This document shows, one piece after another, positions 448-48,852 of a DNA stretch of 64,000 nucleotides. Source of the DNA: Escherichia coli (lineage in GTDB: Bacteria; Pseudomonadota; Gammaproteobacteria; Enterobacterales; Enterobacteriaceae); the NCBI RefSeq assembly GCF_041886205.1, contig NZ_CP169029.1; one strand, given 5' to 3'. Below the pieces are notes generated by a model. The model did no database searches. It saw only the letters and a list, made by a program, of their open reading frames with translations, and had not been told where the DNA came from. Numbering within the stretch: the stretch's first letter is position 1; every line of letters begins with the position of its first letter. The translations under genes were made by a program, and so were the position numbers.

Positions 448-1599
448 TTAATCAGCTTGCTTACGCAGGAATGCTGGGATATCCAGATAATCCGGCTCTT
501 TCGCAGTTTGCGGCGCATTGTCATTCACGACTTTAGCAACCGGCTTCTGCTCCTGGGTCAGCGGAGCCATCCCGTGCTGCTGGTAGCGATCCATCACTGG
601 CTGCTGAACCTGCTTATTGGTCACCAGAGTGATTTCAGGACGTTTGTCCATGCCGATACCTGTCGCAACAACGGTTACGCGCAGCTCGTCATTCATATCC
701 GGGTCAAGAGAAGTACCGATAACCACAGTCGCGTTGTCGGAAGCAAATGCACGGATGGTGTTACCTACCGTTTCGAACTCATCCAGACGCAGGTCGAAGC
801 CCGCCGTGATGTTAACCAGCACGCCGCGCGCGCCAGACAGGTCGATATCTTCCAGCAGCGGAGAAGAGATAGCCATTTCAGCAGCTTCTTCCGCACGGTC
901 TTCACCGCTCGCCACGCCAGAACCCATCATTGCGTAGCCCATTTCAGACATTACGGTGCGTACGTCTGCAAAGTCCACGTTCATCAAACCCGGACGAGTA
1001 ATCAGTTCGGCGATACCTTGCACAGCGCCTTTGAGTACATCGTTCGCTGCGCCAAACGCATCCAGCAGGGAGATACCGCGGCCCAGAACTTTCAGCAGTT
1101 TGTCGTTCGGGATAGTGATCAGAGAGTCCACATGCTTGGACAGTTCAGTGATCCCCTGCTCCGCGAATGCCATACGCTTCTTGCCTTCAAAGTTGAAGGG
1201 CTTAGTGACGACAGCAACGGTCAGGATACCCAAATCTTTTGCCACTTCAGCGACGACTGGTGCTGCACCTGTACCGGTACCACCACCCATACCCGCAGCA
1301 ATAAAGACCATGTCTGCACCTTCCAGCGCCGCACGCAGTGCATCGCGATCCTCATCAGCCGCATTGCGGCCAACTTCTGGATTAGCGCCAGCTCCCAGTC
1401 CTTTGGTGATACCGCTACCGATTTGAATCGTCTGTCCAACCGCTGTTTTACGCAGCGCTTGTGCATCGGTATTTACCGCGAAGAATTCAACACCTTCAAT
1501 GCGCTCGCGCACCATGTGTTCAACAGCATTACCGCCGCCGCCGCCGACGCCGATGACTTTAATCACCGCGTCATTGGTAAGTTCCATTGGTTCAAACAT
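448..1599 (-). CDS. ftsZ: Cell division GTPase FtsZ (383 aa)
   Basis: ORF track 383 aa; tubulin-like GGGTGTG signature; full-length match to E. coli FtsZ from memory. Confidence 0.97.
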
Positions 1600-1659
1600 A
1601 GTTTCTCTCCGATTTGTGCCTGTCGCCTGAGACCGTAATCATTGTCGGCCTCATAAAAA

Positions 1660-2922
1660 TTAAAACTCTTTTCGCAGCCAACTATTGAGTCGCTTGATCC
1701 ACGAGCCAACTGATGCTGTAACACGTTTTTCTACTTCAGCTTCACCGTTAAGATGTGACTCTTTCCCGTAATGAAGCAATCCCACCGCCGTCGAATAATA
1801 CGGCTCCTGAGCATAATCCGTTAAACCGGTAATGTTCAGTGGCGCGCCGATACGCACCTGCGTATGAAACACGCGCTGAGCACAGGCTGCAAGACCTTCA
1901 ATCTGCGCTGCGCCACCGGTTAATACAATGCCTGCCGCCAGGTGATGTTTAACCCCTTGTTGGCGAAGCTTTTCCTGCAACTGCAATATCTCTTCGTTGA
2001 CCAGGTTGAGCAGCTCGGTATAGCGCGGCTCGATCACCTCTGCCAGGGTCTGACGTTGCAGACTCCGCGGCGGACGACCGCCTACGCTCGGCACTTCCAC
2101 GCTCTCATCTTTTCCAACGATGGAACCCAGCGCACAACCGTGGCGAACTTTAATCGCTTCGGCGTCGCTTGGCGGCGTGCCAAAGGCGTAAGCGATATCA
2201 CTGGTCACGACATTGCCAGCATAAGGAATTACCTTAGTGTGGCGCAATGCCCCACCGGTATAAACGGCGATATCCATTGTACCACCACCGATATCGACGA
2301 CGCAGACACCCAGTTCACGTTCATCTTCCGTCAATACCGAATAACTTGATGCCAGACCGGCAAATATCAGTTGGTCAACTTTCAGCCCACAACGTTCAAC
2401 CGCTTTGACGATGTTTTTCGCCATATCGTTGTGGCATGTGATCAGGTGCACTTTTGCCTGCATCCGCACGCCCGAAAGTCCTACCGGATTCTTGATCCCT
2501 TCCTGATAGTCAATCGCATACTCTTGCGGGATCACATGCAGCACACGATGCTCATCGCGCACACGCACCGATTTCGCGGTATGGACGACGTTTTCCACAT
2601 CTTCTTGCGTTACTTCTTCTTCAGAAATAGGCACCATACCAATTTCATTCTGGCAGCTGATGTGCTTACCAGAAAGCGCCAGATATACCGAAGAGATCTG
2701 ACAATCTGCCATCAATTCTGCCTGGTCAATGGCGCGTTGTACGCACTTGACCACGGATTCGAGGTCGTTCACCCCGCCTTTATCCATACCACGCGACGGG
2801 CAGCTGCCCACGCCAATGATATTGACCATACCGTCGGGCAGAACTTCCCCTACTAAAGCGGCAACCTTCGCGGTACCAATCTCCAGTCCTACTACCAGTT
2901 TTCTGTCCGTCGCCTTGATCAT
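1660..2922 (-). CDS. ftsA: Cell division protein FtsA (actin-like ATPase, 420 aa)
   Basis: ORF track 420 aa, [20 protein letters not shown]...; conserved dcw order. Confidence 0.96.
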
Positions 2923-16811: not shown

Positions 16812-17270
16812 TTATAGAGACAAGTCCTGCAGTCGCTCCGATAAGTCTCCGGTAGCCAACTGCTCTGCGTCGATATCTTCCTTGACCTGTTGATGCCAGG
16901 TTGTTTCATCCCACAGCTCAAACTTGTTGAACTGTCCAACCAGCATCACTTCTTTTGTCAGCCCGGCATGTTGCCGCAGTACTGGCGCGATTAACAATCG
17001 ACCTGCGCCATCCATCTGACATTCGCTGGCATGACCTAACAGTAGGCGCTGCACACGGCGCTCAACCGGGTTCATGCTCGACAGACGCGATAATTTTTGC
17101 TCGATAATTTCCCATTCAGGCAGGGGGTAAAGCAGCAGGCACGGGTGATGAATGTCAATGGTGCAAACCATTTGACCGGCAGCGTTCTCAAGCAGCTGTT
17201 CCCGATAACGGGTAGGCACTGATAAGCGCCCTTTGCTGTCGAGATTGACTAACGTTGCTCCCCGGAACAT
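16812..17270 (-). CDS. mraZ: Transcriptional regulator MraZ (152 aa)
   Basis: ORF track 164 aa; known protein starts at internal [19 protein letters not shown]...; first gene of the dcw cluster. Confidence 0.92.
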
Positions 17271-17400
17271 GCCAGCCTCACCCCTTATTCCCACTTTGCC
17301 CCACAATTTCCCACTGAAAGGAGTTTACGGAGCGGAGGAAAAGCTTGTCAAGCCAGTCACAAGGCATACCGAGGTAAAAAACCCGATGTTTACGGCTAAT
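17271..17400 (-). promoter_or_regulatory. Pmra promoter region of the dcw cluster, containing the MraZ operator repeats
   Basis: Immediately upstream of mraZ; three TGGGN direct repeats at 10-bp spacing (minus strand TGGGA-N5-TGGGG-N5-TGGGA, about 17289-17313). Promoter elements themselves not mapped. Confidence 0.7.
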
Positions 17401-22536: not shown

Positions 22537-23194
22537 ACTTAACTCCACTGTCACACTTAACTCCCTTTCCCTTATTGGAATGCAGAGAAATAATCCTGAA
22601 GAATATGATTTATCATGCATATAAAATAAGAAAAAGGAAAATGAGTAAAATTAGGAAAACATAAAGATACGGGTTCTTATAAAAACAGAATCCATTGCCG
22701 TGGAAAGCGTCATTTACCACAGCATAATAATCCATAATGTTTTTGTTGCGAAAACAATCTAATCATAACTACCGCGAATACTCAATCATCTACAAAATGG
22801 ATTAAATGTGCTTATTTAATAATTAATTTATATATTTAATGCATTAATTCTTAACATTAATCGATCAATAATATTCACCATATCAATATCAAAAAACTCG
22901 CAAAACATATAATTCAATACAAATCATAAGGATAGGTTTTTCTACCTGTGCATTTTGTCCCCTTTTTCCTCGTTGATTAGATGCAAAAATTTATTCTGAA
23001 ATATGTCAACCTATGAAAAGCGTCGGTAGTTAAGCAGAAATTAATATCGCTTGTTTTAACCACAGCAGCACAATTAGCTAATTTTACGGATGCAGAACTC
23101 ACGCTGGCGGGACGTTTTTGTTACGTCAGGGTTGACATCCGTTTTTGTATCCAGTAACTCTAAAAGCATATCGCATTCATCTGGAGCTGATTTA
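22537..23194. promoter_or_regulatory. leuO–leuL divergent intergenic region (658 bp, strongly AT-rich; H-NS-silenced leuO promoter and leu promoter)
   Basis: Long AT-rich tracts (e.g. aattaatttatatatttaatgcattaattcttaacattaatcgatcaataatattc); matches the known leuO regulatory region. Confidence 0.65.
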
Positions 23195-23281
23195 ATGACT
23201 CACATCGTTCGCTTTATCGGTCTACTACTACTAAACGCATCTTCTTTGCGCGGTAGACGAGTGAGCGGCATCCAGCATTAA
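23195..23281 (+). CDS. leuL: leu operon leader peptide LeuL (28 aa; four consecutive Leu codons)
   Basis: [28 protein letters not shown]; GGAG Shine-Dalgarno before the ATG; the 63-aa track ORF is an upstream extension. Confidence 0.92.
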
Positions 23282-23302
23282 GCCAGCACGCAGTCAAACA
23301 AA

Positions 23303-23331
23303 AAACCCGCGCCATTGCGCGGGTTTTTTTA
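23303..23331 (+). terminator. leu attenuator (intrinsic terminator)
   Basis: cccgcgc-cattg-gcgcggg followed by T7 immediately after leuL and before leuA. Confidence 0.88.
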
Positions 23332-29309: not shown

Positions 29310-29536
29310 AAAAAAAACCAGCAGGTATAATCTGCTGGCGGGTGATTTTACACCAATACTCAGTCACACATGATGCAGGCAAGTCAACTTTCAGAATTGC
29401 GGTCATCCCACTGCATCAGTTCTTCAAGCATGGTTAATCGTTGTGGGACGCTTAACCAACGCAACCAGCACAACTTCGCTGTCGCGGTAAAATAGTGCTG
29501 ATAAAACTGACGCATGGGGCACCTCCTTGCTTCATC
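29310..29536 (-). ncRNA. sgrS: Small RNA SgrS (glucose-phosphate stress sRNA, about 227 nt) with intrinsic terminator at its 3' end
   Basis: Minus-strand sequence GATGAAGCAAGG...GUGUGACUGAGUAUUGGUGU...CCAGCAGGUAUAAUCUGCUGG-U8 matches my recollection of SgrS, including the ptsG-pairing region and terminator. Confidence 0.9.
29384..29515 (-). CDS. sgrT: SgrT small protein (43 aa) encoded within SgrS
   Basis: MRQFYQHYFTATAKLCWLRWLSVPQRLTMLEELMQWDDRNSES; the 99-aa track ORF is an upstream extension into the promoter region. Confidence 0.85.
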   Translation of the reverse strand: MRQFYQHYFTATAKLCWLRWLSVPQRLTMLEELMQWDDRNSES

Positions 29537-48744: not shown

Positions 48745-48852
48745 TCACGCTGGCGCAGTTCGGTAGGCGGATAAGGCGTTCACGCCGCATCCGGCAATTG
48801 TGCGCCGATTGCCTGATGCGACGCGGGCCGCGTCTTATCAGGCCTACAGTTT
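48745..48852. repeat. REP elements between rluA and djlA
   Basis: cggtaggcggataaggcgttcacgccgcatccggca ... gcctgatgcgacgcgggccgcgtcttatcaggcctac. Confidence 0.85.

Follow-up and report, generated by a model that had tools for sequence, protein, structure and literature searches.

Three phased repeats just upstream of mraZ very probably form the MraZ operator at the head of the Escherichia coli dcw cluster

[quoted passage not shown] The repeats lie in a stretch of 64,000 nucleotides of E. coli DNA that was analysed as a whole and is called the window in the following. The original prediction described them as three TGGGN units at 10-bp phasing between positions 17289 and 17313, and equated them with the autoregulatory binding repeats that have been described for MraZ in the Pmra region. 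The evidence assembled here speaks for this reading, and we consider it very probable (about 0.93) that the repeats serve the MraZ repressor as its operator at Pmra. The site as such is already known; the annotation is correct and does not represent a discovery. What may be regarded as mildly new is the GTGG register of the boxes with its evolutionary footprint, their placement at positions +2 to +25 of the transcript, and the coincidence of a proposed conserved G-quadruplex (G4) with the MraZ boxes.

The repeats are located on the minus strand, on which the sequence runs ...TAAACTCCTTTCA GTGGGAAATT GTGGGGCAAA GTGGGAATAA GGGGTGAGGCTGGC ATG up to the start of mraZ, or, in a wider form of the region upstream of the gene, ...TTGACAAGCTTTTCCTCCGCTCCGTAAACTCCTTTCA-GTGGGAAATT-GTGGGGCAAA-GTGGGAATAA-GGGGTGAGGCTGGC-ATG. 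The units TGGGA (17313..17309), TGGGG (17303..17299) and TGGGA (17293..17289) follow each other with a period of 10 bp and are separated by the spacers aattg and caaag, and both the predicted span and the predicted spacers are exact. Since the A of the mraZ start codon is at 17270, the TGGGN units lie 19-43 nt upstream of the ATG, for which the original prediction had given "roughly 20-45 bp". When the array is read one base further 5', it becomes GTGG-gaaatt-GTGG-ggcaaa-GTGG (17314..17291, minus strand). In this register, box 1 (GTGGGA, 17309..17314), box 2 (GTGGGG, 17299..17304) and box 3 (GTGGGA, 17289..17294) have their GTGG cores at 17314..17311, 17304..17301 and 17294..17291, respectively, all on the minus strand.

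Could such an array have arisen by chance? The pattern TGGG-N6-TGGG-N6-TGGG occurs once in the 64-kb window when both strands are considered, as compared to 0.04 matches expected from dinucleotide shuffles, and at least one match was obtained in four of 100 such shuffles of the window. The pattern GTGG-N6-GTGG-N6-GTGG also has a single exact match in the window. With one mismatch allowed, the sole additional match to the three-box GTGG pattern was the same array shifted by one period (0.30 expected); a second three-box site is absent from the 64-kb window at this level of stringency. Weaker patterns do not exceed the level of chance, as the two-box scan yielded three matches in the window (2.0 expected) and the scan for three GTG units yielded one (0.58 expected). 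Thus, the case rests on full boxes of four nucleotides in a complete array, on their position and on their conservation, and the two weaker scans are unusable for finding further MraZ targets in the window.

Apart from chance, the repeats could be the site of another regulator such as PdhR, for which a 1.7-fold ChIP enrichment and a very weak gel shift have been reported with a fragment upstream of mraZ. However, a sequence resembling the PdhR box with up to three mismatches is absent from the mraZ-cra intergenic region, the matches to the PdhR box across the entire window are at the level of chance (27 versus 25.4 expected), and the repeats are unlike the palindromic PdhR consensus. Given also the low chance expectation per window and the invariance of the boxes in 81 of 81 species, the probability of either explanation is practically negligible.

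The gene downstream of the repeats is indeed mraZ. Its coding sequence (16812..17270, minus strand) comprises 152 codons and a stop codon; the TTG start at 17306 in the list of open reading frames is a mechanical upstream extension of the same gene. The gene product contains two PF02381 domains (E=4e-47) and matches the MraZ chains 9qlr, 9qlg, 9sx6 and 1n0e of the PDB with E values of about 1e-11. It is named "division/cell wall cluster transcriptional repressor MraZ" in the matched sources and "DNA-binding transcriptional repressor MraZ" in the annotation of the K-12 genome. Both DXXXR motifs are present in the translation (D11-S-K13-G-R15 and D87-GAG-R91), and a cognate repressor is therefore encoded immediately downstream of the boxes. 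The Shine-Dalgarno (SD) sequence GAGG (17276..17279, minus strand) precedes the ATG by 5 nt, and the sequence GGTGAGGCTGGCATG is highly conserved. The genes rsmH, ftsL and ftsI follow downstream of mraZ on the minus strand, and cra, ilvH and ilvI are located upstream.

The order cra-mraZ-rsmH-ftsL-ftsI is the same as in E. coli K-12, and over the stretch that runs from the -35 hexamer to the start codon of mraZ, a single SNP separates the window from K-12 MG1655 (NC_000913.3). This SNP, a C in the window and an A in K-12, lies in the spacer between the -35 and -10 hexamers, and the sequence from the -10 hexamer through the ATG does not differ at all. Because the window is E. coli DNA that shares this region with K-12, the site is the published MraZ operator of Pmra, and there is no functional difference between the two. 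The window nevertheless represents a non-K-12 lineage, as its 751-bp mraZ-cra stretch is 100% identical to that of the strains 6EVA and wlxctx60 and 95-99% identical to that of most genomes. This stretch is present in 5422 of 5426 complete E. coli genomes. The 88 nt from the -35 hexamer to the ATG are identical in 3513 of the 5423 matched E. coli genomes, and nearly all others deviate at one to four bases.

What has been published on the K-12 site agrees with the identity of the repeats. Eraso and co-workers are said to have found in 2014 that purified MraZ binds a region, situated between Pmra and its gene, in which there are three direct repeats, and that an excess of MraZ, but reportedly not of a DNA-binding mutant, represses an mraZ-lacZ fusion. 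According to secondary sources, among them PMC7761207, the MraZ protein of E. coli recognises repeats (the "MraZ boxes") that follow the -10 hexamer of Pmra, and represses this promoter. The predicted equation of the repeats with the described autoregulatory sites of MraZ is thus borne out by the identity to K-12, by the position after the -10 hexamer and by the secondary literature.

Where do the boxes lie with respect to the promoter? A promoter scan identified a -35 hexamer TTGACA (17346..17351, minus strand) and a -10 hexamer TAAACT (17322..17327, minus strand) with 10 of 12 matches and an 18-nt spacer, which points to a near-consensus sigma-70 promoter directly upstream of the boxes. The -35 hexamer is invariant in 76 distinct sequences of Enterobacteriaceae and the -10 hexamer is invariant in the same footprint; TAAACT also precedes the boxes in two distantly related loci (L084 and L092). 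In K-12, the mraZ transcription start site (TSS) has been mapped to position 89589 by 29 reads, giving a 5' untranslated region of 45 nt (Kim et al. 2012; PMC3415461, supplement file 2), and the 51-mer listed upstream of this start ends with ...TAAACTCCTTTCA (Kim et al. 2012; PMC3415461). The mraZ leader of Klebsiella pneumoniae is also 45 nt long and its start is the base just 5' of box 1 (PMC3415461). When the K-12 start is transferred to the window by alignment, +1 is the A immediately 5' of box 1 at position 17315 (minus strand), 7 nt downstream of the -10 hexamer. The GTGG cores are therefore located at +2 to +5, +12 to +15 and +22 to +25. An older start, given as "38 bp upstream of mraZ" in PMC7761207 with reference to Hara 1997, would correspond to about 17308, in the gap that separates box 1 from box 2. 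The two leader lengths are in conflict and the 45-nt leader fits the spacing from the -10 hexamer; either reported start (17308 or 17315) falls within the box array.

The boxes are thus found directly upstream of mraZ, after the -10 hexamer and adjoining the TSS. The open complex of RNA polymerase covers roughly positions -55 to +20, and the boxes at +2 to +25 lie inside the footprint of the polymerase. This placement, which derives from genome-wide TSS data, supports a simple occlusion model of repression.

Several further observations were made at this promoter. The core promoter (17322-17351, minus strand), including its 18-nt spacer (AGCTTTTCCTCCGCTCCG), is almost invariant in at least 17 genera, and the sequence upstream of the -35 hexamer drifts freely. 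Such a strong conservation of the spacer between the -35 and -10 hexamers is unusual and might indicate another bound factor or a spacer-dependent property of the promoter. A second K-12 TSS at 89701 (23 reads), which lies inside mraZ and corresponds to about 17203 (minus strand) of the window, has been assigned to rsmH (PMC3415461), and K. pneumoniae has internal starts at 101396 and 101438 (PMC3415461). Either internal promoters or sites of processing may lie behind these starts. One of the 5423 E. coli genomes, that of strain WS3294A (NZ_CP035819.1, about 3576785-3576867; L095), has a 5-bp deletion of CAGTG, equivalent to 17312-17316 of the window, by which box 1 loses its GTG and the base of the TSS is lost as well; this is either a natural knockout of box 1 or an assembly error.

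As to structured RNAs, no Rfam family was found in the cra-mraZ intergenic region. Elsewhere in the window, the Rfam matches above the gathering score that are expected in this part of the E. coli chromosome are the leucine operon leader, SgrS, a TPP riboswitch and two copies of naRNA4, and they are located at 23181-23330 (+), 29310-29536 (-), 32819-32918 (+), 41754-41819 (+) and 48765-48844 (+). The window also contains a match of 104.9 bits to PssrA ("Plasmid-encoded Shigella sRNA A") at 1591-1680 (minus strand) in the distal dcw cluster, approximately at the ftsA/ftsZ junction as judged by the K-12 offset. A chromosomal place is odd for a family whose name describes it as plasmid-encoded.

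Which part of the repeat is under selection? To define the footprint, 80 mraZ loci from species-representative genomes of at least 17 named genera of Enterobacteriaceae were compared with the window, which gives 81 sequences in total. The array GTGG-N6-GTGG-N6-GTGG is present upstream of the ATG in 81 of the 81 species-level sequences, and all 12 box columns are invariant among the 76 distinct upstream sequences. The mean fraction of the majority base is 1.00 in the boxes and 0.89 in the spacers, which differ at several positions. It drops to 0.69 over the 6 nt that follow box 3, where variation is greatest, and the three bases in front of box 1 are not constrained. The invariant columns define the conserved unit as GTGG, to which a G as the fifth base of the first two boxes, a TT in front of box 2 and an invariant AAA in front of box 3 are added. 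By contrast, the window from E. coli is alone in having TGGG in each of its three boxes. The predicted unit TGGGN is therefore present in the window, but the register that is conserved begins one base further 5'. As the core promoter and its spacer are almost invariant as well, general conservation of the promoter contributes to the footprint. However, variable spacers between invariant boxes are, on the evidence of the alignment, a signal specific for the boxes.

Past box 3, at exactly one further period, there is a GGGG (17281..17284, minus strand), which may be a degenerate fourth box or part of the translation-initiation region. The slot is occupied by GGGG in 69 of the 81 loci. In twenty loci, an insertion of about 10 bp, i.e. 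one box period, separates box 3 from the ribosome-binding site and widens the gap to 28-30 nt as compared to 19-21 nt (L054, L056, L057, L060, L063, L064, L066-L071, L073-L075 and L077-L081). The genera concerned include Buttiauxella, Cedecea, Siccibacter, Pseudescherichia and Entomohabitans, and the insertion in Buttiauxella resembles a duplicated G-rich unit (GGGGAATTTA-AGGG). In these twenty loci, a conserved (A/G)GGG stays beside TGAGG-ATG, and the slot in the fourth phase varies. The idea of a fourth box is weakened because the (A/G)GGG tracks the SD sequence and the ATG rather than the box phase in the lineages with the insertion, and the GGGG at 17284..17281 more probably belongs to the translation-initiation region.

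The comparison also brought up a doubtful database entry. One locus (L022; CACSKA010000010.1), which is titled "Chryseobacterium sp. 18061", carries an mraZ gene of Enterobacteriaceae (93% identity), and over the aligned stretch of about 95 nt from the promoter to the start codon it does not differ from "Citrobacter sp. 18056" (L020), which comes from the same study. Mislabelling or contamination of the assembly is the probable cause.

Since the boxes at +2 to +25 are transcribed, the repeats might act mainly at the level of the RNA or the polymerase, that is by affecting promoter escape, pausing, translation or mRNA stability, with MraZ being incidental. The leader and the early coding region can be folded into a hairpin over the SD sequence and the AUG (-16.1 kcal/mol, z = -2.2), in which the region of the GGGG, the SD sequence and the AUG pairs with codons 2-10 of mraZ (17241-17284, minus strand). 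However, none of the three boxes is part of this hairpin. Support from sequence comparison is weak, with a consensus energy of -5.5 kcal/mol and one base pair with a compensatory change. Because of the modest z score of -2.2 and the scarce covariation, the hairpin is not claimed here.

Distantly related loci bear on the same alternative. In all of nine mraZ loci for which contig DNA was available and whose MraZ proteins are 36-63% identical, the sense strand upstream of mraZ carries a minimum of two GTGG-N6 boxes in succession or of three GTG units at a 10-bp period. Such arrays are absent from the antisense strand of the nine loci, and the frequency in shuffled controls was at most 0.012 per locus. 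The number of boxes ranges from two to five per locus, and in most cases the arrays come after a -10-like hexamer (TAAACT or TATAGT) or overlap with it. The distance from the array to the start codon varies between 33 and 255 nt with the 10-bp period of the boxes being kept; for instance, one array is located about 225-255 nt upstream of the gene and consists of two plus two boxes (L094). A binding site on the DNA fits this variation better than a fixed RNA element. Moreover, the literature, including PMC7761207, describes direct binding of MraZ to the DNA and repression that depends on the boxes. An action mainly at the RNA or polymerase level is thus extremely improbable.

Could the G-rich character of the array be what selection maintains? 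In this case, a G4 in the non-template DNA or in the 45-nt mRNA leader, rather than the binding of a protein, would explain the footprint. The minus strand from 17312 to 17281 indeed reads GGG-N7-GGGG-N6-GGG-N5-GGGG, a canonical motif with four tracts and loops of at most 7 nt, and with +1 at 17315 all four G-tracts are part of the transcribed leader. The canonical motif is rare, as the operator copy is one of only two in the 64 kb; the other is found at about 8421 (minus strand), inside the dcw cluster. A study from 2025 proposed a functional G4 for the G-rich sequence downstream of PmraZ in Staphylococcus aureus, described its formation and ligand-dependent repression at this promoter, and claimed that the G4 motif of PmraZ is conserved in Gram-negative bacteria (PMC11796246). 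However, among the 81 species-level sequences of Enterobacteriaceae only one, the window itself, has the canonical motif, and the third tract is only GG elsewhere. What completes the motif (17312..17281) in the window is solely the G at the fifth base of box 3, a position at which the 80 further loci, including that of Escherichia albertii, have T, C or A. Furthermore, the invariant G-T-G-G includes a T that a G4 does not need, and the length of the G-runs that it does need varies. When G-quadruplexes were allowed in ViennaRNA, the minimum-energy fold of the leader did not contain one. The strict 10-bp register and the strand specificity in the distant, AT-rich loci rather fit a protein that reads one face of the DNA. 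A G4 was therefore rejected as the conserved function of the array, and it is very unlikely that its formation is what selection keeps.

A narrower variant would be a G4 that is specific for E. coli, spans the operator and the leader and, if it folds in vivo (in the mRNA, or in the open complex on the non-template strand), might compete with MraZ or modulate the translation of mraZ. We regard this variant, too, as very unlikely. If it were true, Pmra would be subject to a second level of control that is peculiar to E. coli, and the G4 ligands reported at PmraZ of S. aureus would owe at least part of their effect to the displacement or imitation of bound MraZ. The S. aureus study mentions neither MraZ boxes nor the phrase "MraZ binding" (PMC11796246), and the ligand effects described therein may need to be re-read as effects on MraZ occupancy.

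The reading as an MraZ operator can also be compared with other MraZ systems, in which the general operator consists of three GTG(G/T) boxes with 6-nt spacers. The MraZ-binding repeats (MBRs) of Pmra in Bacillus subtilis are likewise three direct repeats that contain GTGG and have a 10-bp period; they are required for MraZ-dependent repression, for which both DXXXR motifs are needed. Unlike in the window, their unit is GTGG[A/T]G with a 4-nt spacer, and the position relative to the -35 and -10 hexamers as well as the flanks differ. At PmraBc of Burkholderia cenocepacia, GTG repeats are also located downstream of the -10 hexamer and overlap the TSS, and purified MraZ caused a gel shift, but there are four repeats of 7 nt with 3-nt spacers and the leader is 100 nt long (PMC7761207).

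The operator of the Mollicutes, (AAAGTG[T/G]-N3) in three to four copies, shares with the window the 10-bp period, the GTG core, the A-rich 5' flank, to which AAAGTGG at box 3 of the window corresponds, and a TSS that lies in box 1 or beside it. A cryo-EM structure of Mycoplasma genitalium MraZ on four-box DNA (2026) revealed one subunit per box, with contacts from Lys13, Arg15 and Arg86 to TG(T/G) in the major groove. The protein binds cooperatively and in a manner that depends on the boxes, its closed ring opens on the DNA, and the TSS is inside box 1. The MraZ protein encoded in the window keeps K13, R15 and the Arg of the second motif (R91), as compared to K13, R15 and R86 in M. genitalium. 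However, the Mollicutes operator has four boxes rather than three and mostly a T as the fourth base, the protein is an octamer as opposed to the dodecamer proposed for E. coli, and the protein identity is only about 28%. For Mycoplasma gallisepticum, MraZ has been reported to be an activator. Beyond the MraZ family, MetJ, Arc, CopG and the proteins with the SpoVT/AbrB-MazE fold also insert a beta-strand into the major groove, recognise short tandem boxes and form cooperative oligomers. They belong to other protein families and bind other box sequences, so that the analogy concerns the mechanism and not membership.

How might MraZ act at this site? In the most likely mechanism, the three GTGG boxes, being approximately one helical turn apart, would share one face of the DNA at +2 to +25. 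The two DXXXR motifs of each MraZ subunit (D11/K13/R15 and D87/R91) would make up a beta-sheet "cradle" that reads one box in the major groove, and adjacent subunits of the oligomer would cooperatively occupy adjacent boxes. We infer by analogy that the one-subunit-per-box geometry of the Mycoplasma protein may carry over to the E. coli oligomer. As the boxes lie within the region that the polymerase has to occupy at initiation, bound MraZ would block initiation or escape at Pmra, presumably by steric occlusion of the polymerase rather than as a roadblock after initiation. The outcome would be decreased transcription of mraZ and the proximal dcw genes, and hence negative autoregulation. Binding to Pmra, repression and the one-subunit-per-box geometry have been reported for the identical K-12 sequence or for homologues.

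What does the operator mean for the dcw cluster? The original prediction had it controlling the cluster as a whole, which applies to the proximal genes but goes too far for the distal ones. According to PMC7761207, Pmra drives the first nine genes and MraZ represses the first 11, from mraZ to murC. The distal dcw genes have further promoters. An E. coli mraZ null mutant has no apparent phenotype, and the physiological weight of the repression of Pmra is thus uncertain.

Not TGGGN but GTGG, repeated every 10 bp, is the recognition unit that is conserved among the Enterobacteriaceae and in more distant loci. What has been called a conserved G4 motif of mraZ promoters is most simply the array of MraZ boxes read in a different way, which matters for antibacterials that target a G4 at the mraZ promoter. 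[quoted passage not shown]
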